The translations under genes and the position numbers were made by a program. Of a stretch of 64,000 bases of DNA, positions 4,379 to 18,611 are shown piece by piece. Location: positions 1 to 64,000 of the IMG/VR virus record IMGVR_UViG_3300032116_000032, one strand, 5' to 3'. Positions within the stretch are counted from its first letter, which is position 1; each line of letters begins with the position of its first letter. The DNA comes from a virus. The notes beneath the pieces were generated by a model. That model was not told the DNA's origin. It searched no databases and worked only from the letters and a program-made list of their open reading frames with translations.

Positions 4379-5197
4379 ATGGTACAAAAAATATTTTATA
4401 ACACATCACTCCCAAGAGCAGGGTCTACATTACTTCAAAACATTTTGATGCAAAATCCTGAATTTTATTCAACACCAACTTCTGGCCTTGCTGATTTATT
4501 GATGACTGCAAGGAGTGTTTATTCAACAGGAGACGCATTTAGAGCTCAAGATCCTGAGGAAATGAAAAATGGAATGAAAAATTTCTATAAACAAGGTTTG
4601 TATGGGTTTTATAATGCAATTACAAATAGACCGTATGTTTTTGAAAAAAGTAGGGCTTGGATCGGTAATTATGGATTTTTGGAGTTTTTTGAAGAAGATA
4701 TCAAAATGGTTTGTATGGTTAGAGACTTACGTTCTATTTTTTCATCAATGGAAAAAAACTTTAGAAAAAATCAACACAAAGATCCTATGATTGTCAATGG
4801 AGTTGAATTGAAAAATATGACAACAGTTGCAAGAATTGATCACTTCTCAACAACTCCACCTGTTGGTCCGTCAATTGAATGGTTATTTGAAGCAATACAC
4901 CAAGGATATGATAAAAAAATTCATTTTATACGTTTTGAAGATTTGACTGTAAATCCTGAAAAAGAAATGAAAAAACTATATAACTATTTAGGATTTGATT
5001 ATTATCCTCACCACTTTACAAACATGGAACAACTAACACACGAGAATGATGTAATTCATGGAATTTTTGGCGACCATACAATTAAACCAAATATTGAGCC
5101 ATATAAAGAAGACTTTATTGAAGTTTTAAGTAAAGAACAATCAGATAGAATTAGATCTCACTATGATTGGTTTTATAAAAGATTTAACTATTTATAA
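4379..5197 (+). CDS. PAPS-dependent sulfotransferase
   Basis: The N-terminal 5'-PSB loop is LPRAGSTLL, the 3'-PB-like motif is VRDLRSIFSS, and IRFEDL appears later. Size is 272 aa. Confidence 0.85.
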   Translation: MVQKIFYNTSLPRAGSTLLQNILMQNPEFYSTPTSGLADLLMTARSVYSTGDAFRAQDPEEMKNGMKNFYKQGLYGFYNAITNRPYVFEKSRAWIGNYGFLEFFEEDIKMVCMVRDLRSIFSSMEKNFRKNQHKDPMIVNGVELKNMTTVARIDHFSTTPPVGPSIEWLFEAIHQGYDKKIHFIRFEDLTVNPEKEMKKLYNYLGFDYYPHHFTNMEQLTHENDVIHGIFGDHTIKPNIEPYKEDFIEVLSKEQSDRIRSHYDWFYKRFNYL

Positions 5198-5199
5198 TT

Positions 5200-5460
5200 A
5201 TGGAAACACAAGACACACCACCAAACCCAAGAAATTCTGTATCGGCAGCCTTTGATTCGGTAAACTTAATCAATAACACAATACCATCTACAGGAAAAAC
5301 TATAGATGAAAAAATAGACATTGTGAAACGCAACAAAGACCATTTAGAAATTATGATGGGTAAAAGTTGGTTTACAGAAGCTTTAATAAATGACGAAGGC
5401 AATCAAATACAAACCTGTATTGTAAATGCTCAAAATTTCTTAGACTCTAATGGCGGATAA
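5200..5460 (+). CDS. Small helical hypothetical protein (possible fibre chaperone)
   Basis: 86-aa ORF. It shares the DSxxxIN...NKxHLxI pattern with the next ORF. Confidence 0.6.
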   Translation: METQDTPPNPRNSVSAAFDSVNLINNTIPSTGKTIDEKIDIVKRNKDHLEIMMGKSWFTEALINDEGNQIQTCIVNAQNFLDSNGG

Positions 5461-5944
5461 TTCTTTTGATAGGGTAAAGGTTGCATTAGACTCAATTACA
5501 ATGATCAATAAATTGATTGAGAATACAAGCACGCCTTCAGGAAATTTAGATCCACCAAATATAAATGAGATTATTGAATTTAATAAAAAACATTTAATGA
5601 TTGAAAAAGATAAAGGTGGTTTTAGTGAGACTGAACTTACATTGATTGAAAATAAAATTTCTGAGGCTACAACTTTCATAGAAAACAATCCTAATAACGG
5701 TGGAGGAGGAGTTTCACCATACGTTGTTTTTTTCCAAGATTGTAAGTTAGGGTTTGAATTTGGGGTCAATTTTTCTCCCGAATACCCAAATTTAAAAATT
5801 GGTGACACATATGGTTTAGACGCCAAAGGATATCGAGGTTGTGGTCAAGTAACATCTACACCAAAAAAAACACCACCAATTTATAAAAGTCCGTCAATAG
5901 TAACGTACTTTGAATTTTGTCAGCAATGTATTGACAAGTTCTAA
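5450..5944 (+). CDS. Hypothetical protein, N-terminal paralogue of 5200..5460 plus a Cys-containing C-terminal domain
   Basis: ALDSITMINK...FNKKHLMI aligns with AFDSVNLINN...RNKDHLEI. A GGGG linker precedes the second domain. Confidence 0.6.
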   Translation: MADNSFDRVKVALDSITMINKLIENTSTPSGNLDPPNINEIIEFNKKHLMIEKDKGGFSETELTLIENKISEATTFIENNPNNGGGGVSPYVVFFQDCKLGFEFGVNFSPEYPNLKIGDTYGLDAKGYRGCGQVTSTPKKTPPIYKSPSIVTYFEFCQQCIDKF

Positions 5945-6001
5945 TATATCTTACTAAAAGATTTATTTAAAATTTATTTTTCTTATTTTTTTATAAAAAA
6001 T

Positions 6002-6880
6002 ATGGAAGAAAAATATATTGTTTGGCATATTGAGGGTGGTTTAGGAAAAAACGTTGCTGCAACATCTTTACTAAAATCCATTAAAGAAAAATATGTCGAT
6101 AGAAAAATAATTGTTGTTGCTTCTTATCCTGACATTTTTATTAATAACCCAAATATCTACAGAGTTTATAGAGTAGGTAATACTCAATACTTTTATGATG
6201 ATTTTATAAAAGATAAAGACACTATAGTGTTTAGACATGAACCATATTATCAAACAAATCATTTTCATAAAAGAAAACATTTAATAGAAAATTGGTGTGA
6301 ATTATTAAATTTAGATTACGAAAATCAAACTCCAGATATACAATTTAATTTAGTTCAAGAAAGAATTGGTTTAAAGTGGAGACGAGAAAAACCTATATTA
6401 CTCATTCAAACCAATGGTGGTCTAATTACATCTGATCTACCTTATTCTTGGACAAGAGACATACCTTTTGATCTATCCCTACAAATTGTAGAAAAATATA
6501 AAGAGGAGTACCATATCATACAAGTTTGTAAACCATCCTCAAGAAAAATTCCTGAAGCTGAAGTGATTGATCAAGAAATGTCAAATATAGATTTATTCAC
6601 ATTACTAACTTATAGTAGTAAAAGAATTCTTATTGATTCTTGTTTACAACATGTTGCTGCGGCTTTTAATTTAGAATCGTCTGTTTTATGGATTGGTACT
6701 TCACCAAAAGTATTTGGTTATACAATTCATAATAATATAGTTGCTAACCCACCTACGGGTAATATTAAACATCCAAATTCATATCTGTTTGATTATTCAT
6801 TTGAAGGTTTGGCCTTTGAATGTCCTTATTATTCAATAAACGAAATGTTTGATGTTGATAAACTTTTAGAAAAAATATAA
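6002..6880 (+). CDS. GT-B glycosyltransferase, GT9 (heptosyltransferase)-like
   Basis: HIEGGLGKNVAATSLL at the N-terminus and IDSCLQHVAAAF...VLWIGT resemble GT9 motifs (GLGD...; DSGxxHxAxA). Confidence 0.7.
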   Translation: MEEKYIVWHIEGGLGKNVAATSLLKSIKEKYVDRKIIVVASYPDIFINNPNIYRVYRVGNTQYFYDDFIKDKDTIVFRHEPYYQTNHFHKRKHLIENWCELLNLDYENQTPDIQFNLVQERIGLKWRREKPILLIQTNGGLITSDLPYSWTRDIPFDLSLQIVEKYKEEYHIIQVCKPSSRKIPEAEVIDQEMSNIDLFTLLTYSSKRILIDSCLQHVAAAFNLESSVLWIGTSPKVFGYTIHNNIVANPPTGNIKHPNSYLFDYSFEGLAFECPYYSINEMFDVDKLLEKI

Positions 6881-6882
6881 AT

Positions 6883-7335
6883 ATGATTTATTGGTTTACA
6901 GGTCAACCTGGTGCGGGTAAGACCTCAATTGCTGAAGTACTAATTACAAAACTACCAAATAACACCTTTCACGTTGATGGTGATGATCTAAGAGAAATCT
7001 TTAATAACAAAGATTATAGTGAATTGGGAAGAAGAAAGAATATTGAACTTGCTCAACACATTACACATTTTCTACATAACAAAGGTAATGATGTTATTGT
7101 AAGTTTAGTTTCTCCTTACAGAGATCAGAGAGAAGAATTTAAATCAAAGTTGGGTAATGACATTATCGAGATATATGTTCATACCGAAAATTTAAGAGGA
7201 CGTGAAGACTTTCACGTTAAGAACTACGAAGAACCATTAGAAAACTTTTTAGACATGGATACTTCAGATGTAATAATTGAAACTTGTGTTAATCAAATTT
7301 TAGGATATGAAAAACTACATAGCAAAAGCAGATAA
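6883..7335 (+). CDS. cysC: Adenylyl-sulfate (APS) kinase
   Basis: WFTGQPGAGKT P-loop, DGDDLRE, RRKNI and VSLVSPYRDQRE are all hallmark CysC motifs. Confidence 0.9.
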   Translation: MIYWFTGQPGAGKTSIAEVLITKLPNNTFHVDGDDLREIFNNKDYSELGRRKNIELAQHITHFLHNKGNDVIVSLVSPYRDQREEFKSKLGNDIIEIYVHTENLRGREDFHVKNYEEPLENFLDMDTSDVIIETCVNQILGYEKLHSKSR

Positions 7336-7705
7336 GAAAACCTCATCAACAGACAGACAATACTCAATGTTTGTTGGGAGATGGCAACCATTGCATGAAG
7401 GTCATCAATGGTTATTTAATCAAGCGTTAGAGGAAGGTAAAAACGTTTTGATTTGTATTAGAGATGTAAAACCTGACGATAAAAATCCTTTTACTCCTGA
7501 TGAGGTTAAAAAGAATATTGAGGACCACTATGGTAACTTAATCACTGAAGAGCGTGTTAAGGTAATTATTATTCCCGATATAGAATCAATTAACTACGGT
7601 AGAGGTGTTGGATACGACGTAATTGAGCATGTACCACCACAAAATATTCACGACATTTCTGCGACTAAAGTAAGAGAACAAATGAAGAAAGAAGGTAAGA
7701 TATGA
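7307..7705 (+). CDS. HxGH (HIGH)-superfamily nucleotidyltransferase, NadM-like motif; candidate minimal ATP sulfurylase
   Basis: GRWQPLHEGH and C-terminal DISATKVRE motifs. It overlaps cysC by 29 nt. Confidence 0.75.
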   Translation: MKNYIAKADKKTSSTDRQYSMFVGRWQPLHEGHQWLFNQALEEGKNVLICIRDVKPDDKNPFTPDEVKKNIEDHYGNLITEERVKVIIIPDIESINYGRGVGYDVIEHVPPQNIHDISATKVREQMKKEGKI

Positions 7706-8145
7706 AAGAAAAAATAAAAAAATTCCAAATCAGATTCAATGTTAACAGTACATCTGAAATTGATCGATGGAGATTAATTACAGATGGTGATGAAAAATTG
7801 GTAAAAGATATTATTATTGATGGTCATACATATACTTCTATGGACTGGATGGAGGATATTAATCAATATAAATGGCATGTCAGTTGTGAAGGTTATGTGA
7901 CAATAACTAATAATGTTGCTTATGTTGTAACCGTGAAAGAAGATGCTGCCATGCTCAGACACATATTAAAAACAATATCCTATCGTTTTTTAGGTACTTT
8001 TACAACAATTGTGACCGCATATTCATTAGGAGTTTCTTTAGAGTTATCATCTTTATTAGGTGTTGGTGAACTTATGATAAAACCTGTTATGTATTTTTTT
8101 CACGAAAGAATTTGGTATAAATTTGTAAGAATAGGTAAAAAGTAA
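7702..8145 (+). CDS. Soluble N-terminal domain fused to a DUF2061-like membrane domain
   Basis: The C-terminal RHILKTISYRFLGTFTT...KPVMYFFHERIW matches the DUF2061 pattern as I recall it. It has an ATGA overlap with the upstream gene. Confidence 0.7.
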   Translation: MKEKIKKFQIRFNVNSTSEIDRWRLITDGDEKLVKDIIIDGHTYTSMDWMEDINQYKWHVSCEGYVTITNNVAYVVTVKEDAAMLRHILKTISYRFLGTFTTIVTAYSLGVSLELSSLLGVGELMIKPVMYFFHERIWYKFVRIGKK

Positions 8146-11055
8146 TTACCTATTGTCCATATATATTATCACTTCATTATAATATTCTATGAATTCGTCA
8201 TTCCATAGATTCCATTTAATATCAAGACCATCGACTGAATAAACTTGAATATTATTGAATTGGGATAAAATATTATCTCTAAACCATCTAAACTTACATT
8301 CGTGGTAATTTGAGTCGTTTCTGAGATGAAACTCTGTTACAATTTTTGGAATTGATTTTAAAAATTCAATGTTACTTTCTTGAAAAACATCGTATTCCCC
8401 ACCTTCACAATCACACTTCAAAAAATCAATTTTATCAATTTTATATTCATCTAAAAATTCTTTGAAACTAAATGTCGGGACGTTTTCTGTCATATTATCC
8501 CAAGTGATTTCAATTTTCTTTTTATCAGTTATTGCTCCCTGAATAATTTTTACATTTTCTTGACCTACATTGTTTTTTAAAATTTTGATTTGGTGACTTA
8601 ATGGTTCGACAACATAACATTGTTTTGGTTTTTTCGGTAATATTTTATAAGTAAATGGACCTAAAGATGCACCTAAATCTACAACAATGTCACCCTCCTC
8701 AACCTCAAAAAATCTTTCATAAGTATTACCTTCAAATATTTCTTCCTCAGCTTGTTTTACATACCATTCACTTCTTCCACCCCAATCAAAATTAATTTCT
8801 TGAGTTATTTCCTTATTTGTGATTTTATTAATTTCTGAAATAACCATTTCAGAAGTAATTTGTTTTGTACATTCAAATTGACGATCAGTTCCTTTATGGT
8901 GAGGACACCAATTCCAATCACCAGCATCTAATCTTTCTGAATTAAAACATCCGTGACAAACATTTTGATTTATAACTCTATAGGTATCTAAAGTTGTTTC
9001 TGCCCACTTTGCACTAAAACCTGAAATTAAAATAACAGGAAGTTTACATGCCCAAGCCAACCAAGATAAACCTGATCCTAAACCAATAAAAAATTCACAT
9101 GTTGATAAATCATCTATAACTTCTTGTATGTTCCCACCTTTATATATTGTAACTCCTTTTGGGTAAAAATTATTCATATATCCGTCTCCTTCTTTTGAAT
9201 AAACCATACACTCATATCCTAAACCTATAAGATAATCAACAACCTCTTGCCAACCACTTTGATTATTCCAATATTTTGCTTGTGCTGTTGAATGGATCCC
9301 AATACCAACTTTTTTAACTTTTTCTACTTTTGGTAGTTTTAATTTTGGTCTAATTTCAGAATAATCTAACCCTAAAATATCTGTTGCTGTTTTTTGAAGT
9401 GGTTGTCTTCTGAAATCATTTTTATGATTATTTTTATCGTATAAACCTTCTGATGTATAATACCAACCAAGCCTGTATTGTGCATATATGTTTTCAACAA
9501 CTTTACCTGGATCAACAAACTCAATTTCAGGGTATTGGTCAATAAACAAGTCGTTCATGAAAGTTGAAACGATTAATTTGCAATTGTGTTTTTGTCTAAA
9601 AACCTCACAGTATGGAACCCAAGCCATTGTATCACCTAATGATTTTGACCCGAAAGAAATGTAAACTCTTTTGTTTGTCAGATCCAATGTATTTGTGTAA
9701 ATTAATTCGTCATTTTCTCTTATTTCTGTTTTCCATTTTACGTAATATTCTGTGTTAATTTTTACCCAATGGTTTATAGGTAGAGTATTTTCGTAAATTA
9801 AATTATCATTATCATCAAATATTTTTATATTAAATGGATTTTCACTCTGACCTAAAATTTCAACAAAAGGATTTATAACGAAATGTTGATTAACAATGTA
9901 ATCGTTTTTAATTTTTTCATTTTTTTGTTTAGGTGTATGCATTACATTTTTATAAAAATAATATAAGCTGTCCCCAAAATCATTTTGATATTCAATCGTA
10001 TAATTTGAGTCCTTATCTATTAAATCGATTAAGTTATTTTTTATTTCATTATAATCGTCACTTGATATAGGATAAATGTATTTGTCAAACATACCTACAT
10101 ACTGAGGTAAATTTCTTGTCAATATTTTTAATCCATAATTAATAGATTCTCTAATAACTAATGGATTACATTCCCAAGTTGAGTTAAACATTAAAACATC
10201 AGATGCTATCATGAAATCATCGACATCGTCTCTTTCACCCCAAACCGTCACATTACTTGGTAAGTTATTCATAATTGGACCCCAATAATCCTCAAAATTT
10301 GGTGCTTGGTTTCCAATAAAATGAAAATGAACGTTGGGATGAGATTCCTCAAATAATCTTGCAACTTCAACACCCTCTTTTTGATTTTTACCCGATGTCC
10401 ACAGACCAACGTTTAAAACATGAGTCTTCATATGATCTAAACCTATTTTATCTCTTACCTCAATTTTTTTAAGAAGAGGTACTCTATGATCATCATAATA
10501 TATTTCTAATTCATCTAAAATTGGTTTTACTTTATTTTCATATGGATACATTATGAGTTCTTTTTTAGATGGTGTGTCTTTAAAAGAAACTTGATTATGG
10601 TATGGAGTTACAAGACAATAGTAATCAGGATGTAATTTTTTATTATTAGGATCAAACCAAATGTTATGACAAGTTTCTACTACTCTCCAAGTTCTATTAT
10701 TATCATATAATTCGTTTAATAAATCTAATGGCATTTTATTAAAACTTTCAAATGCTTCAGGAATTTCTTCAGCATGTACTATATCTATTTTGTTTTCTTT
10801 TATAATACGAATCAATTCATATTTTTTTTCTTTTTCTGTTGTTCCACCAAGAGTCCAAAAATGACCAGTTTCCAATAAATCAATAATTTTATTTCTTTGC
10901 ACAACATAAGTGTCACTAAACTGAGAATACTCAACTAAAAAAATTTCAATTTGATTTTTGTATTTTTGAAGGGACTGAATTCTTTTCAAAACAAATTGTG
11001 GCATACCCCCTGTTGAAAGGTGTGGTGTAAGATATAATAATTTAATTTTTTCCAT
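8146..11055 (-). CDS. Three-domain enzyme: GT4 glycosyltransferase + Aah/TibC-like protein O-heptosyltransferase + FkbM-like methyltransferase
   Basis: GT4: HLSTGGMPQF and GERDDVDDFMIASDVLMFNSTWECNPLVIRES. Aah/TibC-like: SKSLGDTMAWVPYCEVF, GLGSGLSWLAWA and CHGC-x13-C-x11-C. FkbM: VVDLGASLGPF and LKCDCEGGEYD. Confidence 0.8.
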   Translation of the reverse strand: MEKIKLLYLTPHLSTGGMPQFVLKRIQSLQKYKNQIEIFLVEYSQFSDTYVVQRNKIIDLLETGHFWTLGGTTEKEKKYELIRIIKENKIDIVHAEEIPEAFESFNKMPLDLLNELYDNNRTWRVVETCHNIWFDPNNKKLHPDYYCLVTPYHNQVSFKDTPSKKELIMYPYENKVKPILDELEIYYDDHRVPLLKKIEVRDKIGLDHMKTHVLNVGLWTSGKNQKEGVEVARLFEESHPNVHFHFIGNQAPNFEDYWGPIMNNLPSNVTVWGERDDVDDFMIASDVLMFNSTWECNPLVIRESINYGLKILTRNLPQYVGMFDKYIYPISSDDYNEIKNNLIDLIDKDSNYTIEYQNDFGDSLYYFYKNVMHTPKQKNEKIKNDYIVNQHFVINPFVEILGQSENPFNIKIFDDNDNLIYENTLPINHWVKINTEYYVKWKTEIRENDELIYTNTLDLTNKRVYISFGSKSLGDTMAWVPYCEVFRQKHNCKLIVSTFMNDLFIDQYPEIEFVDPGKVVENIYAQYRLGWYYTSEGLYDKNNHKNDFRRQPLQKTATDILGLDYSEIRPKLKLPKVEKVKKVGIGIHSTAQAKYWNNQSGWQEVVDYLIGLGYECMVYSKEGDGYMNNFYPKGVTIYKGGNIQEVIDDLSTCEFFIGLGSGLSWLAWACKLPVILISGFSAKWAETTLDTYRVINQNVCHGCFNSERLDAGDWNWCPHHKGTDRQFECTKQITSEMVISEINKITNKEITQEINFDWGGRSEWYVKQAEEEIFEGNTYERFFEVEEGDIVVDLGASLGPFTYKILPKKPKQCYVVEPLSHQIKILKNNVGQENVKIIQGAITDKKKIEITWDNMTENVPTFSFKEFLDEYKIDKIDFLKCDCEGGEYDVFQESNIEFLKSIPKIVTEFHLRNDSNYHECKFRWFRDNILSQFNNIQVYSVDGLDIKWNLWNDEFIEYYNEVIIYMDNR

Positions 11056-11119: not shown

Positions 11120-12118
11120 ATGGCAACTGCAAGACCTTTTGCGTACAACACAGGATCGACAATTTCGGGAACCATACAAGTTGGTAACTTGGCAGTTGGT
11201 TACCCGACTGCAGGATTTGCGTCAACAGGTCTTGAATGGTGGAATGGTCCTGATGAAGATTTGGGTTACGTTATTGCACAACAAGTTCCTGATGATAGTC
11301 AACCAACACCAGTTGTTGGGGTTACAGCATCTGTGGGATTCTTCAGAACTAACGGATTTGATGATAATGAATTTGTAACTTTGGCAAATTTAGTGTCAAA
11401 TGCGAACTATACTAATGCGTCAAATGCCGCTATAGGGTTAACTTCTAATGGGTATTGGACATCTTATGTTCCTAATTCAAATTTAAAATTACACTTAGAT
11501 GCATCAGACCCAAATAGTTATTCAGGGGTAGGTACAACATGGTATGATTTGAGTAGTAGTGGTAATGATGTACAAATGAACAACTCAGGAAGTATTAATT
11601 GGGTTAATACGGGTGCTACATATTTTTCCACAGGATCTAATGGTTGGTTTTCAAACCCTTCAGGAATAGATTTGCCAACAGGTAACACACCTTATACTTT
11701 CATTATATGGGCTCAAATAGAATCAGGTTGGAATGCTAACGGTTTCATGAGTATTGGTCCATTTGGTATTGCTAATCAATCAAATGCATTTAGGACTGGT
11801 ATAGAAAATCAATTTATAAACTATTGGTGGGCTAATGATTTAGCCGTAGTAGGGTCACTACCTTCAACCACCTCTTGGTTTAACGCTGTTGCTAAATTTG
11901 ATGGAACAACAAGAAGTATATTAGTTAATGGTGTACTTTTAGGTTCTGACACTCCTGTAGGTCATTACGTTAGCACAAGCGAATTACAAATTGCAAAAAC
12001 ATATACTAATGAGTATTTAAATGGAAATGTTGGTGAAGTGTTAATTTATGATATCGCATTATCCGATTCAGATATATTACAATATTATAATGATACCAAA
12101 ACAAGGTTTGGTCTATAA
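11120..12118 (+). CDS. Virion-associated protein with a C-terminal LamG/ConA-like jelly-roll domain
   Basis: LHLDASDPNSYSG...WYDLS and NGNVGEVLIYDIALSDSDILQYYN are typical of phage LamG-like domains. It is preceded by the TATTTATA motif. Confidence 0.75.
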   Translation: MATARPFAYNTGSTISGTIQVGNLAVGYPTAGFASTGLEWWNGPDEDLGYVIAQQVPDDSQPTPVVGVTASVGFFRTNGFDDNEFVTLANLVSNANYTNASNAAIGLTSNGYWTSYVPNSNLKLHLDASDPNSYSGVGTTWYDLSSSGNDVQMNNSGSINWVNTGATYFSTGSNGWFSNPSGIDLPTGNTPYTFIIWAQIESGWNANGFMSIGPFGIANQSNAFRTGIENQFINYWWANDLAVVGSLPSTTSWFNAVAKFDGTTRSILVNGVLLGSDTPVGHYVSTSELQIAKTYTNEYLNGNVGEVLIYDIALSDSDILQYYNDTKTRFGL

Positions 12119-12158
12119 TTAATTTATATATTTTCATTTTTTTTGGTGTATATTTTTC

Positions 12159-13097
12159 TTGATGAAAAACATTTGTATTGATATTACACAATGCCGAGCT
12201 TTAGGAGATACTTTATGTGCCACACCTGTAGTTAGAAAAATTAGTAAAACATATAATCAAAAAGTTTCTGTAATCTCCCATCATTCAGAAATATTTTCAA
12301 ATTTACCTTATGTAGAAAATAATTATCAATATTCCCCCGAAACGTTTGATAAAATAAAAGACGAGTATGAAATGTTTCAAACTTTCGACGTTTTTTATAA
12401 GGAAAGTGGTATTTGTAACAAACATAATACAATGGACATCAGACAACTTCATGCCATTAGTTTAGGTTTTATGTTAACAAAAAAAGAAATGGAAATGGAT
12501 TATATCACTGATGACAATGTCATCTTACCTGATTTACCATTAAAATATGTTTTAATTCATCCAGTTCAAAATTGGGATTCAAGAACTTGGCCGGCAAAAA
12601 GTTGGCAAATGTTAACACAACTTTTAAATGAAAAAGGTATTTCAGTAATTTCTGTGGGTAAAGATTCTTCAGAAATGGGAGGTTCTAATGTTGATAAACC
12701 CGTATTTAATTTTCCAATAAAGCTTGGGTACAACTTAATGAATCAAACGACCTTAGATCAAACTTGGCATTTGATTAACAATAGCTCTTGTTTTGTAACT
12801 ATGGATTCAGGTCTTTTACATTTAGCAGGAACAACAGATGTTAACATAATTCAGTTGGGAAGTTCCATTGATCCTGAGTTCAGATCGCCCTATAGACAAG
12901 GTTCTCAGAATTATAAATACCACTATGTTAGAGGTGGTTGTGGATTAAATTGTGCTTCAGATATGAAATATGGTGTTAGAGAATGGGGGACAATTCAAGG
13001 AATACCATCTTTAGTTGGGTGTTTAGAAAGAAAAAAAACTTTTGAGTGCCACCCATCTGTTTTACAGGTATACCAAAAAATTTTGGAAATAGTGTAG
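12159..13097 (+). CDS. GT9-like glycosyltransferase with a C-terminal four-Cys cluster
   Basis: RALGDTLCATP, SRTWP and FVTMDSGLLHLAG motifs, then C-x3-C-x22-C-x8-C. Confidence 0.8.
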   Translation: MMKNICIDITQCRALGDTLCATPVVRKISKTYNQKVSVISHHSEIFSNLPYVENNYQYSPETFDKIKDEYEMFQTFDVFYKESGICNKHNTMDIRQLHAISLGFMLTKKEMEMDYITDDNVILPDLPLKYVLIHPVQNWDSRTWPAKSWQMLTQLLNEKGISVISVGKDSSEMGGSNVDKPVFNFPIKLGYNLMNQTTLDQTWHLINNSSCFVTMDSGLLHLAGTTDVNIIQLGSSIDPEFRSPYRQGSQNYKYHYVRGGCGLNCASDMKYGVREWGTIQGIPSLVGCLERKKTFECHPSVLQVYQKILEIV

Positions 13098-13116
13098 TTA
13101 GGTATTTATATTATAT

Positions 13117-13419
13117 ATGCCAAATTACGTAAATATAAATTCAATCGTAGGAACACCTCCATACACAATATTTGTATGTGATCAGACTTTTACTTCTTGT
13201 TTTTTGGCTGCAGGACCAATTCCAATATCTACACCATATACTTTTATGGTACCACCACCATTAACTAATGTGACAGACATTATTGTTAAAATAATTGATA
13301 GTAACGGATGTGATACTTGGTATCCACTATCTTGTGGGACTTACTACGGAAAGGAATTCGAAGATTTTGCAATATTTTTGTTTCAGGACACAAATATATA
13401 TTTATTTGAAGGTCAGTAA
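13117..13419 (+). CDS. Small virion adaptor-like hypothetical protein
   Basis: 100-aa ORF with a beta-rich body and an acidic/aromatic C-terminus (EFEDFAIFLFQDTNIYLFE). It is preceded by TATTTATA. Confidence 0.55.
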   Translation: MPNYVNINSIVGTPPYTIFVCDQTFTSCFLAAGPIPISTPYTFMVPPPLTNVTDIIVKIIDSNGCDTWYPLSCGTYYGKEFEDFAIFLFQDTNIYLFEGQ

Positions 13420-13430
13420 TATTTATTAGT

Positions 13431-14765
13431 ATGCCAGTTTATAATAGACTCACAGATAGATCTCAAGTTTCAGCCGTCACAGTTAACGATATTTTTCACG
13501 TTGTAGTTACAGGTGATACAAGTCAGAGCCCACAAGGTTCTTCATATTTTGCCCCAATTAGTTTTTTACAACCAATATTAAGTGGTGCTAGTGGTTCGGC
13601 AGGTACTTCAGGTACAAATGGCACAAGTGGTACTAATGGGACTAGCGGGACTTTTGGTACTTCAGGTACAAATGGCACAAGTGGTACTAATGGTACTAGT
13701 GGGACTAACGGTACAAATGGTACTAATGGTACTAGTGGGACTAACGGTACAAATGGTACAAGCGGAACTAATGGTACAAATGGTACAAATGGTACAAGCG
13801 GAACTAATGGCACAAATGGTACTAATGGAACATCAGGTACCCATGGCACATCGGCAACTAACGGTACGTCAGGTACTAATGGTACAAGTGGAACAACTCC
13901 ACCGGGTTTTACATCAGGTACTAATGGTACTAATGGTACAAACGGAACATCTGCAACTAATGGTACAAACGGAACTAATGGTACTTCAGGTACAAATGGG
14001 ACATCAGGTACCAACGGAACATCAGGGACTAATGGAACTAATGGTACTTCAGGTACATCGCCAACTTCAGCAACTACAGTCAGTACTATAGAAAACACAG
14101 GAAATACTAAATTTTATGTAACATTTGTTGATTCAAACAATACCGTTGCGCTAGCAGAAAGTTTATACACAAATGCAGGTATTAGCTTTAATCCAAGTAC
14201 TGATATTCTTGAAGTTTCTTCCGCATACCAAAGTGGTGACGGAACAGTATCCGCACCATCACATAGTTTTACTTCAGACCCAAATACGGGAATTTATAGG
14301 ATAGGTACCGATAATATCGGTGTTGCCACTGGCGGTGTAAGACGAATGAGTGTTGATAGTAGTGGTACTTTATATGTTGGTAACGGGAATGAATCTAATG
14401 GATCAAACTTCATAATTCCTTTAGGTGGGTACGTCCAAACATCTAACGCAACTCCAACAACATTAATAACTTTGGCAACATCAAACGATAATGTTTATAC
14501 GGTAGAGGCGTTTGTTGCTGGTGCAACAACATCAGGGACTGTTGGTATTGGTGGAATTATAAGTGCAACTTTTTTAAATAACGGAGGAACTGTTAATCTT
14601 ATTGGGGCAGTTCAAGGGTCAGTTCAAGAAAACATTATAGGGTCACCAACATTTACACTTCTTGGGTCGGGTAGTAATATTATTTTACAAGTTACAGGAG
14701 TTGCCTCAACTACTATTAATTGGTTCGGTAAAATTAAATATATCACAGGAAGTAGGTCAATTTAA
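13431..14765 (+). CDS. Collagen-like fibre protein
   Basis: About 50 GTN/GTS triplets (nt about 13584-14060) with one PPGFTS interruption. A PSHSFTSDPNTGIYR fibre-type motif and a beta-rich tip follow. Confidence 0.8.
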   Translation: MPVYNRLTDRSQVSAVTVNDIFHVVVTGDTSQSPQGSSYFAPISFLQPILSGASGSAGTSGTNGTSGTNGTSGTFGTSGTNGTSGTNGTSGTNGTNGTNGTSGTNGTNGTSGTNGTNGTNGTSGTNGTNGTNGTSGTHGTSATNGTSGTNGTSGTTPPGFTSGTNGTNGTNGTSATNGTNGTNGTSGTNGTSGTNGTSGTNGTNGTSGTSPTSATTVSTIENTGNTKFYVTFVDSNNTVALAESLYTNAGISFNPSTDILEVSSAYQSGDGTVSAPSHSFTSDPNTGIYRIGTDNIGVATGGVRRMSVDSSGTLYVGNGNESNGSNFIIPLGGYVQTSNATPTTLITLATSNDNVYTVEAFVAGATTSGTVGIGGIISATFLNNGGTVNLIGAVQGSVQENIIGSPTFTLLGSGSNIILQVTGVASTTINWFGKIKYITGSRSI

Positions 14766-14813
14766 CTTTCAGTTTTTCATTTATTTTAATCATTATTTTT
14801 TTATTTTTTCTGT

Positions 14814-16058
14814 ATGAGAATATTTGTACAGATTGCTGCTTATCGTGACCCCCAACTTATACCAACAATCAAATCTATGTTGGAGAATGCAAAAAAACCA
14901 AAAAACATTATTATTGGTATCGCAAGACAATTTAATCCTGAAGATGGTTTTGATGATTTAACTGAATATGAAAATGATGATCGTTTCCGTATTTTAAATA
15001 TCCCATACACCGAATCAAAAGGAGTGTGTTGGGCAAGACATCAAGTACAACAATTATATGGGGGTGAAGAATACACACTTCAAATCGATTCTCATATGAG
15101 GTTTGAAAAAGATTGGGACGATACTTTAATTAAAATGATTAAAAAATTACAAAAACTTGGTCATAAAAAACCTTTGTTAACGGGTTATGTTTCATCTTTT
15201 GATCCTGATAATGATCCTGAAGGTAGGGTTAATGAACCTTGGAGAATGGCATTTGATAGATTTACACCTGAAGGCGTTGTATTTTTCTTACCTGAAGTGA
15301 TTCCTGATTGGAAAAAAATTAAAGATCCAATTCCCGCAAGATTTTACTCGGCACACTTTTGTTTCACTTTAGGTCAATTCTCAACTGAAGTACAACACGA
15401 TCCTGAATTTTATTTTCACGGAGAAGAAATTTCAATTACGGTTAGAGCTTATACACATGGATATGATTTATTTCACCCAAACAAAGTTATTATTTGGCAC
15501 GAATACACTAGAAAGGGTAGAACTAAACAGTGGGATGATGATAAGGAATGGTATTTGAAAAATACTGCCTGTCATAAAAAAAATAGACAACTTCTTGGTA
15601 TAGATGGTGAAAAATATGAAGGAGATTATTATGAGTGGTTTGGTAAAGAAAGAACAATAAGAGATTATGAAAAATATGCGGGGTTGCTATTTGAGACAAG
15701 AGCAGTACAACAAGACACTATAGATAAAAAATATCCACCAAACGAGTACAATTTTGAAAATGAGAACGAATGGAAAAAAAGTTTTTCCACAATATTCAAA
15801 CACTGCATTGATTTAGATTTAAATCAAGTTCCTGAAACGGATTATGATTTTTGGGTTGTTGCCTTCCACGATCAAGAACATCAAACAATTTTTAGACAAG
15901 ATGTCGACGCAAACGAGATTATAAGAATAAAGTCAGACCCTGAAGGATACGGTAAAATATGGAGAGAGTTCAACACAACAAAGATACCATCTTATTGGGT
16001 AGTGTGGCCTCACTCAATTTCAAAAGATTGGTGTGATAGAATTGTCGGTAATTTATGA
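14814..16058 (+). CDS. GT60-like polypeptide GlcNAc-transferase (Skp1 GlcNAc-T / GlcNAc family)
   Basis: IFVQIAAYRD, GVCWARHQVQ, YTLQIDSHMRF, LLTGY, FHGEEI and RAYTHGYDLFHP match the GT60 pattern. Confidence 0.75.
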   Translation: MRIFVQIAAYRDPQLIPTIKSMLENAKKPKNIIIGIARQFNPEDGFDDLTEYENDDRFRILNIPYTESKGVCWARHQVQQLYGGEEYTLQIDSHMRFEKDWDDTLIKMIKKLQKLGHKKPLLTGYVSSFDPDNDPEGRVNEPWRMAFDRFTPEGVVFFLPEVIPDWKKIKDPIPARFYSAHFCFTLGQFSTEVQHDPEFYFHGEEISITVRAYTHGYDLFHPNKVIIWHEYTRKGRTKQWDDDKEWYLKNTACHKKNRQLLGIDGEKYEGDYYEWFGKERTIRDYEKYAGLLFETRAVQQDTIDKKYPPNEYNFENENEWKKSFSTIFKHCIDLDLNQVPETDYDFWVVAFHDQEHQTIFRQDVDANEIIRIKSDPEGYGKIWREFNTTKIPSYWVVWPHSISKDWCDRIVGNL

Positions 16059-16942
16059 AAACACTATTTGTAACTTGTTTATATTCTAAACTTTTTGGAT
16101 CTGAATTTGGTGGTAGAGATAGTAGAGACGGACATTATAAAAATTCATTAAAAAGTCTTTTAAAAATGTCTGATGCCAAATTTATTTGTTACACATCAGA
16201 AAATCAGTTAGAGGATTTAAAAACTTTCTTTTATAAACAAAACAAATTTAATGAGGATCAAATTCAATTTAAAATATTTAATTTAAAAAATTGTGAATAC
16301 CATCAACAAATTTCTGAATTAAGAAAAACACAAAGTAATTTACTACAAGACAGATGTTACGAAATACAATACTCTAAATTCTTTTGGTGTTTAGAAAATT
16401 GTAACAATTCAGATTTTGATTATGTTTATTGGATTGATGCCGGATTGTCTCATAGTGGATTAATACCACCAAAATATTTAGACCAAACAAAGGGGTATTG
16501 GGAAAAATATTTTGAGTCTGAATTATTTAACAACACATTTTTAAATAATTTGATTAAACATACTGAAGAAAAGATTGTGGTATGTGCAAAAGAAAACCAA
16601 AGAAATTATTGGTCAAAAACCTTACCAAAAAAATATTATAACAATTATAGTTTTGATAGACATATCATCGGAGGTTTGTTCGGAGGTAAAAGAGAGAAAT
16701 TAAAATACTTCTGTGATTTATTTAATAAAGAAATCAAAAAGGTTTTAAATAATGAAGTTGATCTTTATTTAGAAGAAAATATAATGAGTTTAATATTTTC
16801 TAATAATAAAGAGTTATTCAACCCACTTCTATTTGATATTTGGTGGCACGAAGAAGATTACATACCTGGCGTTGATTTGAAAGAATTGACGTTAAAAGAA
16901 AAAAGTTTTTATAAAATTATAGAAAATCTAAATAATATATAA
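16055..16942 (+). CDS. HtrL/YibB-like putative glycosyltransferase
   Basis: FVTCLY N-terminus, YSKFFW, YVYWIDAGL, IIGGLFGG and EENIMS. Confidence 0.65.
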   Translation: MKTLFVTCLYSKLFGSEFGGRDSRDGHYKNSLKSLLKMSDAKFICYTSENQLEDLKTFFYKQNKFNEDQIQFKIFNLKNCEYHQQISELRKTQSNLLQDRCYEIQYSKFFWCLENCNNSDFDYVYWIDAGLSHSGLIPPKYLDQTKGYWEKYFESELFNNTFLNNLIKHTEEKIVVCAKENQRNYWSKTLPKKYYNNYSFDRHIIGGLFGGKREKLKYFCDLFNKEIKKVLNNEVDLYLEENIMSLIFSNNKELFNPLLFDIWWHEEDYIPGVDLKELTLKEKSFYKIIENLNNI

Positions 16943-16943
16943 G

Positions 16944-18611
16944 ATGATAACATTAGTTACAGGATTGTGGGATATTGGTAGAGGAGATCTATCAGAAGGA
17001 TGGTCAAGGTCTTTTGATCATTATTTAAGTAAATTCGAACAACTATTACAGGTAGATTGTAATATGATAATTTTTGGTGATAGTGAATTAGAAAAATTTG
17101 TTAATGAAAGAAGAAGTGTAACTAACACACAATTTGTATTGAGAGATTTAAGTTGGTTTAGAAATAATGAATTCTTCAATCAAATTCAGTCAATAAGAAC
17201 AAATCCGAAATGGTGTAATCTTGCTGGTTGGTTAAAGGACTCAACACAAGCGAGATTAGAAATGTACAACCCATTAGTCATGTCAAAAATGTTTTTATTA
17301 CATGATGCGGTCTTATTAGATAAATTTAGTTCTGAAAAACTATATTGGATTGATGCTGGTTTAGCAAATACTGTCCACATGGGTTATCTAACTCATGATA
17401 AAGTATTACCAAGAATTGATAATCTTTTTAGTAATTTTACATTCATTTGTTTCCCGTATGTTGCCGATAAAGAAATACATGGTTTTGATATTAATAAAAT
17501 GGATATCATTACAGGAACAAGAGTTGATAAAGTATGTCGAGGAGGATTCTTTGGCGGTCCTGTAAATTTAATTAGACAAATGAACACCCTCTATTATAAT
17601 CTGATGAAATCAACATTAGAAAGAGGATTAATGGGGACGGAAGAAAGTCTATTTTCAATTTTATTATATAACAACCCAACAATAATAGATTATGTAGAAA
17701 TTGAGTCCAACGGTTTGATTTATAAATTTTTTGAAGATGTAAAAAACAATAATTTAGTCATCAAATCATTAAAAAAAGAAAGAGTTATAAAAAATAAAAA
17801 CAATGGTCAAGTTGGTTTATACGTCATAACATTTAATAGTCCAAAACAATTCGAGACTCTTATTAATTCTATGTTATTATATGACTCTGAATTTTTAGAA
17901 AAAACTAATAAATTTTTATTAAACAACTCAACTGATCTATCAACAACGCCTGAATATATTAAGTTGTGTGAGCAATATGGATTTGAACATATCAAAAAAG
18001 ATAATATAGGGATTACAGGTGGTAGAGTGTTTGTTGCTGAACATTTTGAAAATTCAGACATGGAGTACTATTTGTTTTTTGAAGACGATATGTTTTTCAA
18101 CATGGGTGCGGACGATTTATGTAAAAACGGATTTAACAGGAATGTAAGACACTTATATAGAAAAGTTTTACAAATTATGAGAAAAGAAAATTTTGATTTT
18201 TTAAAATTAAATTATACTGAATTTTATGGTAGTCATGAAAGACAATGGTCTTGGTATAATGTGGATCAAGAATTTAGATCAAAACATTGGCCAAATAATC
18301 AAAAACTACCGACACACGGTCAAGATCCTAATTCTCCTTTTTTAGAATTTAAAAATATAAAATCTGTTGATGGCTTACCATACGCAACAGGTGAGATTTA
18401 TTTATCTAATTGGCCAATTATTTTATCAAGAGAGGGAAATTACAAATGTTATATTGAAACTAAGTTTGATCATCCTTACGAACAAACTTTAATGTCTCAC
18501 TGTTTCAAAGAAACAATTAAAGGTAGAATACATGCAGGTTTGTTACTTTTAACCCCAACTGAACACAACAGGTTTGACTTCTATGATGGTAAATTGAGAA
18601 AAGAATTCTAA
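16944..18611 (+). CDS. HtrL/YibB-like domain fused to a GT-A (GT2-like) domain
   Basis: ITLVTGLWDIGR, SKMFLL, YWIDAGL, GGFFGG and GTEESLF. The second domain has YVITFN and YYLFFEDD (DXD-like). Confidence 0.65.
   Translation: MITLVTGLWDIGRGDLSEGWSRSFDHYLSKFEQLLQVDCNMIIFGDSELEKFVNERRSVTNTQFVLRDLSWFRNNEFFNQIQSIRTNPKWCNLAGWLKDSTQARLEMYNPLVMSKMFLLHDAVLLDKFSSEKLYWIDAGLANTVHMGYLTHDKVLPRIDNLFSNFTFICFPYVADKEIHGFDINKMDIITGTRVDKVCRGGFFGGPVNLIRQMNTLYYNLMKSTLERGLMGTEESLFSILLYNNPTIIDYVEIESNGLIYKFFEDVKNNNLVIKSLKKERVIKNKNNGQVGLYVITFNSPKQFETLINSMLLYDSEFLEKTNKFLLNNSTDLSTTPEYIKLCEQYGFEHIKKDNIGITGGRVFVAEHFENSDMEYYLFFEDDMFFNMGADDLCKNGFNRNVRHLYRKVLQIMRKENFDFLKLNYTEFYGSHERQWSWYNVDQEFRSKHWPNNQKLPTHGQDPNSPFLEFKNIKSVDGLPYATGEIYLSNWPIILSREGNYKCYIETKFDHPYEQTLMSHCFKETIKGRIHAGLLLLTPTEHNRFDFYDGKLRKEF

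Follow-up and report, generated by a model that had tools for sequence, protein, structure and literature searches.

A candidate minimal ATP sulfurylase paired with an APS kinase homologue in a putative sulfation cassette of a large marine phage

The stretch of DNA analyzed here, referred to below as the window, comprises the first 64 kb (64,000 nucleotides) of the 136-kb IMG/VR virus record IMGVR_UViG_3300032116_000032, which has a GC content of about 30% and whose source was described as a large marine phage. CheckV estimated the completeness of the record at 46% of the phage genome. Between positions 4379 and 8145 of the window, seven open reading frames (ORFs) were observed, all on the + strand and either overlapping or spaced by 2-57 nt. 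Two of them are the subject of this study: P0005 (6883..7335, + strand), a 150-residue, lid-less homologue of adenosine 5'-phosphosulfate (APS) kinase identified with the Pfam APS_kinase model, and P0006 (7307..7705, + strand), a 132-residue nucleotidyltransferase with HxGH and ISxT motifs, identified with the CTP_transf_like model and proposed here as a candidate minimal ATP sulfurylase. The start codon of P0005 is located 2 nt past the stop of the preceding gene, P0004. The P0006 gene overlaps the P0005 gene by 29 nt, with an AGGA 4 nt ahead of its ATG, and its stop shares an ATGA overlap with the start of the following gene, P0007. An earlier reading of this DNA (the original prediction) had described the run as a self-contained sulfation module in which an HxGH nucleotidyltransferase gene overlaps a cysC-like gene. 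Every ORF that it named was found at its position on the + strand, and the overlap was confirmed.

P0006 belongs to the HIGH-signature nucleotidyltransferase superfamily, as judged by the HxGH motif, the ISxT-type second motif and two models, CTP_transf_like (PF01467; 2.9e-6, 28 bits with a cut-off of 21) and TIGR00125 (37.5 bits with a cut-off of 27.7). Its closest solved relative is NadM (2qjo, 1e-5), and its nearest neighbors by sequence are NadM and the archaeal nicotinamide mononucleotide adenylyltransferases (NMNAT), only over residues 15-94. The claim that its motif most resembles that of NadM was thus borne out by sequence and also by the structure searches described below. Full membership in these families was not indicated, since P0006 scored 27.4 bits against the NMNAT model TIGR01527 (cut-off 181.2) and 35.1 against NF002243 (cut-off 127), with matches confined to its residues 20-94, and it stayed far under the cut-offs of all NMNAT, phosphopantetheine adenylyltransferase (PPAT) and NadR models, for example 19.7 versus 103.3 for the PPAT model TIGR01510. 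The phmmer alignments with NMNAT end at residue 94, and about 30 NMNAT residues after the DIE motif have no counterpart in P0006; from residue 94 to ISAT there are about 23 residues in P0006 versus about 47 in 4yp5 and 1ej2. The NMNAT segment after DIE presumably holds the nicotinamide-binding residues. An alignment of 41 diverse relatives was used to map conservation, and G24-R25, H30-x-G32-H33, R52, P61, G98-R99-x-V101-G102-Y103, S118-x-T120 and R123 were conserved throughout the family. H30 and R123 were invariant, and G32, H33, S118 and T120 were present in at least 90% of the 41 members. The conserved residues specific to this family are R52 (in IRD) and the G98-R99-x-V-G-Y stretch.

The AlphaFold2 model of P0006 (mean predicted local distance difference test, pLDDT, 90.2) shows a HIGH-type nucleotidyltransferase core. 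In the VIA-align comparison the top match was the Methanocaldococcus jannaschii NMNAT 1f9a (Z 10.0, root-mean-square deviation (rmsd) 2.9, 110 residues aligned), followed by the PPAT 4nah (Z 9.6, rmsd 3.0, 112 aligned) and NadM (Z 9.3). The Thermus thermophilus ATP sulfurylase 1v47 was found at Z 7.7 (rmsd 3.7, 117 aligned), tied with cytidylyltransferases, and the ATP sulfurylase 1j70 at Z 6.1. Foldseek and VIA-align both ranked NMNAT and PPAT first, with Sat in a tied middle group. Hence, the fold that the original prediction had ascribed to both P0006 and the Sat-type ATP sulfurylase is indeed common to them, although NMNAT and PPAT are closer. The match to Sat is unspecific, because the HIGH-type fold is common to the whole superfamily, and the fold as modelled leaves the substrate undecided.

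P0005 matched the Pfam APS_kinase model PF01583 at 3.1e-17 (63.5 bits with a cut-off of 21.1), and its closest solved structure is the APS kinase 8a8h (1.7e-11). With bona fide CysC it has in common the P-loop, DGD, R37, S46, R50, N53, SP78, R83, R105 and E116-x-P118, and all of these core residues are kept in both the phage kinase and the short cellular form. When P0005 was aligned with CysC proteins that pass the equivalog cut-off, G7, G12, K13, D32, D34, R37, R50, N53, P78, R83, R105, E116 and P118 were invariant.

The family of P0006 comprises 6811 matches of similar length, or 1307 representatives at 50% identity. Its members are annotated in the source databases as 'cytidyltransferase-like', as NMNAT ('nicotinamide mononucleotide adenylyltransferase') or as adenylylsulfate kinase, and full-text searches of the literature found no paper on it. 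Gene neighborhoods were counted in 80 viral and 80 cellular loci. A gene for an APS kinase homologue was located directly ahead of the nucleotidyltransferase gene in 79 of the 80 viral loci, and in about 70 of the 80 cellular loci the APS kinase gene was adjacent to, overlapping with or fused to it. The cellular carriers include Marinimicrobia, Bacteroidota, Verrucomicrobiota, Patescibacteria, Acidobacteriota, Planctomycetia, Omnitrophota and Nitrospiraceae, as well as one metagenome-assembled genome (MAG) of Pelagibacteraceae and archaea of marine groups II/III. The longer relatives are fusions with APS kinase, with either the kinase or the nucleotidyltransferase first, and phrog_10255 is one such fusion. 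Against the apsK equivalog model TIGR00455 (cut-off 138.7), cellular kinase neighbors scored 257.9, 276.7 and 150.4 bits, and fusion partners in either order scored 201.8 and 200.1; by this measure, several of the cellular partners are bona fide CysC. The linkage and fusion of homologues with cysC, which the original prediction had put forward for analysis, are therefore near-universal and occur in both orders, and the contrary case, in which homologues are unlinked to cysC, is decisively set aside.

Since the family is too rare in random phylum samples (found in 3 of 101 genomes from the Marinimicrobia phylum and, among 201 Bacteroidota genomes, in the centre genome alone), the presence of known APS-forming enzymes was determined in 50 genomes that carry the nucleotidyltransferase, with positive controls. 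Sat was found in 6 of them and CysD in 5, leaving 39 with neither. To our knowledge, AprA marks the only other route to APS. It was found in a single carrier, which also had Sat, so AprBA was rejected as the alternative source, and 39 of the 50 carriers are without Sat, CysD and AprA. As controls, ribosomal protein S2 was detected in 47 of the 50 genomes and NadD in 39, with the four archaeal carriers among those without NadD. Incomplete assembly is therefore no explanation for the gap in APS sources. Two of the carriers without Sat and CysD are also records titled as single chromosomes (G011, 0.97 Mb, and G046, 4.5 Mb). Three of the six Sat matches, all from Nitrospiraceae, are degenerate at the GRDHAG motif and show GWDYAS, EPNYAA or GQDYAS at this position. 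These Sat-like domains (L164-L166; genomes G035, G037 and G033) lie in open frames of 582-588 aa, and the region L050:7074-8432 was noted together with them. In the Nitrospiraceae the nucleotidyltransferase gene directly follows a cysH-type PAPS_reduct gene in all four loci, and as judged from these sequences, assimilatory sulfate activation in this group may have passed to the nucleotidyltransferase.

The first gene of the run, P0001 (4379..5197, + strand), encodes a 272-residue sulfotransferase dependent on 3'-phosphoadenosine 5'-phosphosulfate (PAPS), as assigned by Pfam, PHROG and its motifs. It matched Sulfotransfer_3 at 6.4e-16 (59.7 bits, cut-off 27), Sulfotransfer_1 at 9.2e-11 (42.1 bits, cut-off 22) and phrog_27463 at 2.9e-36, and it contains PRAGST, which resembles the 5'-phosphosulfate-binding (5'-PSB) motif, and RDLRSIFSS, which resembles the 3'-phosphate-binding (3'-PB) motif. 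The sulfotransferase announced for position 4379 was thus recognized by both Pfam models. A sulfotransferase of the P0001 type adjoins the kinase-nucleotidyltransferase pair in 17 of the 80 viral loci, and with six sulfotransferase seeds a sulfotransferase was found within 8 kb of the pair in at least 31 of the 80 viral and at least 38 of the 80 cellular loci. In the cellular loci, capsule or extracellular polysaccharide genes and sulfotransferases are the recurrent neighbors. In two complete phages of 321 kb and 252 kb, where the kinase-nucleotidyltransferase pair stands bare, the only ORFs elsewhere that resemble Sulfotransfer_1 do so weakly (E 5e-5 to 2e-3). In another phage group, two tandem paralogous ORFs (L116:4379-5179 and L116:5271-5978) were observed upstream of the pair. 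They carry KCG[TS]SH and RNPYSRFFS motifs with weak Sulfotransfer_1 scores of 18.1 and 12.5 bits, and they seem to represent a divergent family of phage sulfotransferases at the edge of detection by Pfam. In about 50 of the 80 viral loci (L088-L092, L103-L108 and similar ones), the pair lies between a DUF3310 gene and a gene for an N6/N4 DNA methylase, and a 471-aa, weakly DHH-like protein is encoded about 3 kb downstream.

The last gene, P0007 (7702..8145, + strand), encodes 147 residues, consisting of a domain of about 75 residues and a DUF2061 membrane domain. The predicted DUF2061 fusion at 7702 was confirmed by Pfam (PF09834; 1.6e-13, 51.3 bits, cut-off 23.1), with the match covering residues 88-138 (nt 7963-8115). 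In other loci the two halves are separate small ORFs. The first 75 or so residues (7702-7960) were found as an ORF of their own at L001:1223-1456, L095:4197-4418, L097:6606-6827 and L015:7657-7971, sometimes between the kinase and the nucleotidyltransferase genes, so that, judging by sequence, a still unnamed protein of about 75 residues may be the fourth conserved component of the cassette. Around DUF2061 genes in nine Bacteroidota genomes (L167-L179), of which only G003 carries the nucleotidyltransferase, the ORFs included nine PAPS_reduct proteins (CysD/CysH type), three APS kinases and one Inositol_P-family protein. DUF2061 appears from this company to belong to sulfate activation or assimilation; no paper on its function was found in full-text searches of the literature.

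P0004 (6002..6880, + strand; 292 residues) is a glycosyltransferase of the glycosyltransferase family 9 (GT9) fold, which is of the GT-B type, as assigned from an AlphaFold2 model (pLDDT 87.1) and Foldseek. The top match of the model was the GT9 protein 3tov (E 1.6e-11, TM 0.64), followed by heptosyltransferase II 1psw, TibC 4rb4 and WaaC; 6dfe was matched as well. A Pfam scan at E<=0.1, which would include the GT9 model PF01075, gave no match for P0004. The label 'GT9-like' given to this gene thus stands at the level of the fold and has no Pfam match behind it. A P0004 homologue accompanies the P0001-type sulfotransferase in 16 viral loci and in three MAG contigs of Flavobacteriaceae, Sediminibacterium and Ignavibacteria (L005, L015 and L037). 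In these contigs a phage-like cassette of five genes was observed, consisting of the sulfotransferase, kinase, nucleotidyltransferase, DUF2061 and GT9-fold genes. Beyond the cassette, nothing in the 16-kb stretches of the three contigs matches the phage record, and the cassette therefore seems to move as a unit. A nucleotide search with the cassette gave no match in the phage collection.

The two other ORFs, P0002 (5200..5460, + strand; 86 residues) and P0003 (5450..5944, + strand; 164 residues), have no match in Pfam or PHROG and were left without a family. They overlap by 11 nt. P0002 is a weak paralogue of the N-terminal half of P0003 (31% identity over 80 residues, E 4e-5) and has a homologue in only 1 of the 80 viral loci, and in P0003 a Gly-rich linker leads to a C-terminal part that contains Cys. 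The cassette is surrounded by genes for fibre-like and collagen-like proteins and glycosyltransferases. Convergent with it, on the - strand at 8146-11055, lies the gene of a 969-aa protein composed of a GT4 domain (Glycos_transf_1), a GT9-like segment and an FkbM-type methyltransferase domain. The gene run at 11120-18611 encodes a protein with a concanavalin A (ConA)-like lectin domain, a GT9 protein (PF01075, 1.4e-15), a collagen-repeat protein, an N-acetylglucosamine (GlcNAc) transferase (PF11397, 1.2e-70) and an HtrL/YibB-like protein. Next to its fibre-like genes, the phage devotes much coding space to the building of glycans.

From comparative genomics and fold, we propose that P0006 is quite probably an undescribed, minimal ATP sulfurylase outside the Sat type, which together with the kinase would form a two-gene PAPS synthase; gene context points to sulfate as its substrate, to APS as its product and to the target of sulfation. 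The original prediction, in which P0006 supplies APS and so gives a minimal PAPS synthase, is thereby partly supported. The carriers have an APS kinase and often sulfotransferases, without a known source of APS, and the constantly coupled nucleotidyltransferase is therefore the obvious candidate for the missing step. The company of sulfotransferases, cysH and DUF2061, together with the bona fide CysC partners, argues for sulfate as the substrate. ATP sulfurylase chemistry is plausible for P0006, with HxGH and ISxT intact, an Arg52 and a Gly98-Arg99 of its own, and the Sat fold. Extended to the family, we lean towards a third, unrecognized class of ATP sulfurylase of about 110-130 residues, derived from an NMNAT-like ancestor, which with APS kinase would supply all PAPS in the carriers and possibly assimilatory APS/PAPS in the Nitrospiraceae.

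Several observations weigh against this proposal. P0006 scored 18.5 bits against the Sat model PF01747, under the cut-off of 24.3 and over residues 27-63 only. It has GRWQPLHEGH instead of the QxRNPxHxxH of Sat and no aligned GRDHAG; the GRGVGY of the family loosely resembles GRDHAG, with its position unaligned. It is a single domain of 132 residues with neither the PUA-like N-domain nor the catalytic domain of about 200 residues found in Sat. When the family was compared with six Sat domains by hhalign, the generic ISxTxxR end was the only part aligned (34% probability), and homology to Sat beyond the superfamily was rejected. Judged by sequence, P0006 is outside the Sat family, and its nearest relatives in both sequence and fold are NMNAT and PPAT, not Sat. 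Similarly, P0005 scored 67 bits against TIGR00455, under the cut-off because about 20 lid residues (KGLYKKA...FTG) are missing, a deletion also seen in the short cellular forms. The gene announced as cysC at 6883 is accordingly an APS_kinase by Pfam and a lid-less variant under the equivalog cut-off. The distribution is not strictly complementary either, as Sat or CysD is also present in 11 of the 50 carriers. The reported lack of Sat and CysD in the window was extended to the full 136-kb record, in which neither PF01747 nor the CysD/CysH model PF01507 found a match; the record covers about 46% of the estimated genome, which limits the value of this absence and of the label 'self-contained'. 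Finally, in many of the phage loci of the DUF3310/methylase type no sulfotransferase was found with the six seeds.

The most probable of the alternatives is that the pair makes a donor that resembles PAPS but is a different compound. The nucleotidyltransferase would join ATP or CTP to phosphoramidate, phosphate, selenate or another anion, and the CysC-like kinase would add the 3'-phosphate. We consider this unlikely, though it has a precedent. In Campylobacter jejuni, Cj1416 is a nucleotidyltransferase and Cj1415 is a CysC-like cytidine diphosphoramidate 3'-kinase that is annotated as an APS kinase, and the pairing of such enzymes therefore need not mean PAPS. The C. jejuni enzymes Cj1415-Cj1418 make CDP-phosphoramidate 3'-phosphate (PMC11800397), which counts against sulfate as the necessary substrate. 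As in the present pair, the O-methyl phosphoramidate (MeOPN) pathway combines a nucleotidyltransferase with a CysC-like 3'-kinase, and the pair, located in a capsule locus, makes a 3'-phosphorylated nucleotide donor (PMC11800397). The divergent, lid-less phage kinase and the many phage loci without a recognizable sulfotransferase nearby would fit such a donor. However, the MeOPN pathway uses CTP, phosphoramidate, a glutamine kinase and an amidase, whereas the acceptor enzymes here are sulfotransferases, and no glutamine-kinase-type or amidase-type genes turned up among the scanned representatives of the recurrent neighbor clusters. The cellular CysC partners pass the equivalog cut-off, the recurrent neighbors are sulfotransferases recognized by Pfam, with cysH in the Nitrospiraceae, and DUF2061 links the cassette with sulfate-assimilation genes. 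An alternative donor would also leave the lack of known ATP sulfurylases in the carriers unexplained.

It is improbable that host CysDN or Sat supplies the APS and that P0006 acts as an accessory of the kinase, as a replacement for the lid, a regulator binding APS or PAPS, or a scaffold. The missing lid of the phage kinase would suit such a role, and CysD is present in G003, the Flavobacteriaceae genome with the most phage-like cassette. Non-catalytic partner domains occur in fungal ATP sulfurylases and in the Thiobacillus APS kinase 3cr8. The predicted complex of P0005 and P0006 gave an ipSAE of 0.33 versus 0.00 for the best control, which is weak support; 58 of 80 solved complexes came up to this mark, as did 2 of 110 mismatched pairs, and those that did so at 0.60 or under were only 7 of the 80 solved ones together with both mismatches. 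Across the runs the contact agreement was at least 0% and the partner pLDDT at least 83. With support of this kind, binding between the kinase and the nucleotidyltransferase is not claimed. Against an accessory role, the 41 diverse members keep HxGH, ISxT and R123 with few or no exceptions, and with catalytic signatures so conserved a non-catalytic domain is unexpected. The nucleotidyltransferase also pairs with full-length, lid-bearing CysC, and 39 of the 50 carriers have no APS source for it to rely on.

A still smaller chance was given to P0006 being an NMN adenylyltransferase for NAD salvage, with P0005 as the nicotinamide-riboside kinase of a split NadR-like pair. NadM, archaeal NMNAT and NadR are the top matches in sequence and structure, some source annotations name the family accordingly, and phages do carry NAD-salvage genes. 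However, the scores far under all NMNAT cut-offs and the missing residues after DIE speak against this assignment, and P0005 matches APS kinase, with no ribosylnicotinamide-kinase family among its listed matches. The cellular partners are bona fide CysC, and no NAD-salvage families of the NAMPT or Nudix type turned up in the recurrent neighbor clusters scanned. The 39 carriers with NadD, which do not include the four archaeal ones, have therefore their own NAD adenylyltransferase, which weakens a housekeeping NMNAT function.

Least probable of all is that P0006 resembles HldC and transfers adenylyl or cytidylyl groups to sugar 1-phosphates, so that the GT9-fold transferases encoded nearby receive ADP-heptose or a similar donor. 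The gene does lie downstream of such a transferase with two further GT9-like domains nearby, its size and fold class fit HldC and TagD (5x9q, Z 6.5, rmsd 3.7, 95 aligned; 2b7l, Z 7.4), phrog_7878 is weakly matched (E 0.009), and an HldA-like PfkB kinase gene lies just downstream of the nucleotidyltransferase, on the opposite strand, in eight Marinimicrobia loci, but this reading is weakened by the canonical HldC, scoring over the TIGR02199 cut-off, that each of the five Marinimicrobia carriers tested has elsewhere in its genome, by a 136-kb virus record with neither GmhA nor HldE domain I, by the lack of TIGR02199 (HldC/HldE domain II) among the NCBIfam matches of P0006 at E<=0.001, and by a constant partner that is an APS kinase and not a sugar kinase, with a GT9-fold gene beside the pair in only 16 of the 80 viral and 3 of the 80 cellular loci.

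The proposed two-gene PAPS synthase can be compared with several known systems. In the Sat-CysC PAPS synthases (metazoan PAPSS1/2, 1x6v; Aquifex, 2gks), an APS kinase is likewise the coupled or fused partner of a HIGH-fold adenylyltransferase, with either domain first, and the same two steps proposed here lead from sulfate to APS and then to PAPS, with the product feeding sulfotransferases. Both structures match the P0006 model at Z 5.8-5.9. Unlike Sat, which has about 350-400 residues, the adenylyltransferase here has 110-130 and fails PF01747, with no PUA-like domain, QxRN or GRDHAG. P0006 appears to descend from the NMNAT/PPAT side of the superfamily, and the phage kinase is lid-less. With NadM and the archaeal NMNAT (1f9a, 1ej2, 2qjo, 2qjt), P0006 has the GRxQPxHxGH, NPF(T), IP-DIE and ISxTxxR motifs in common, whereas R52 and GRGVGY are its own, its scores are far under the cut-offs of those families, and the partners of its family are CysC, sulfotransferases, CysH and DUF2061. 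The two-step logic is that of CoaD and CoaE, in which a small HIGH-fold adenylyltransferase is followed by a P-loop kinase acting on the adenosine 3'-OH; however, the kinase here is of the APS kinase family and not CoaE, and the context is sulfation and not coenzyme A synthesis.

In the mechanism that we propose, the run at 4379-8145 would be a phage-borne sulfation cassette. On a stripped-down, NMNAT/PPAT-like HIGH-fold core, P0006 would convert ATP and sulfate into APS and pyrophosphate. Next, the translationally coupled, lid-less kinase P0005 would convert APS into PAPS by phosphorylation at the 3'-OH, and this step would pull the unfavourable APS-forming reaction forward. P0001 would use the PAPS to sulfate a glycan, which P0004 and the many neighboring glycosyltransferases would help to build and which is probably located on the Ser/Thr-rich fibre proteins of the phage or on a surface polymer of the host. 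The DUF2061 membrane domain is a regular companion of sulfate-activation genes.

Sulfate activation is taught with two enzyme solutions, Sat and CysDN. If our proposal is true, a third, miniature solution would alter the inference of sulfur metabolism from genome sequences, because organisms and phages scored as being without ATP sulfurylase would be able to make APS and PAPS. These would include SAR406, archaea of marine groups II/III, Patescibacteria, some Pelagibacteraceae and many Bacteroidota, which are now read as unable to activate sulfate, and the orphan APS kinases and sulfotransferases of abundant ocean lineages would be explained. Enzymatic PAPS supply would also gain a very small enzyme from this family. 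For glycan sulfation, phages would bring along a complete pathway to the sulfate donor, and hundreds of aquatic phages would sulfate their own glycans or those of their hosts.

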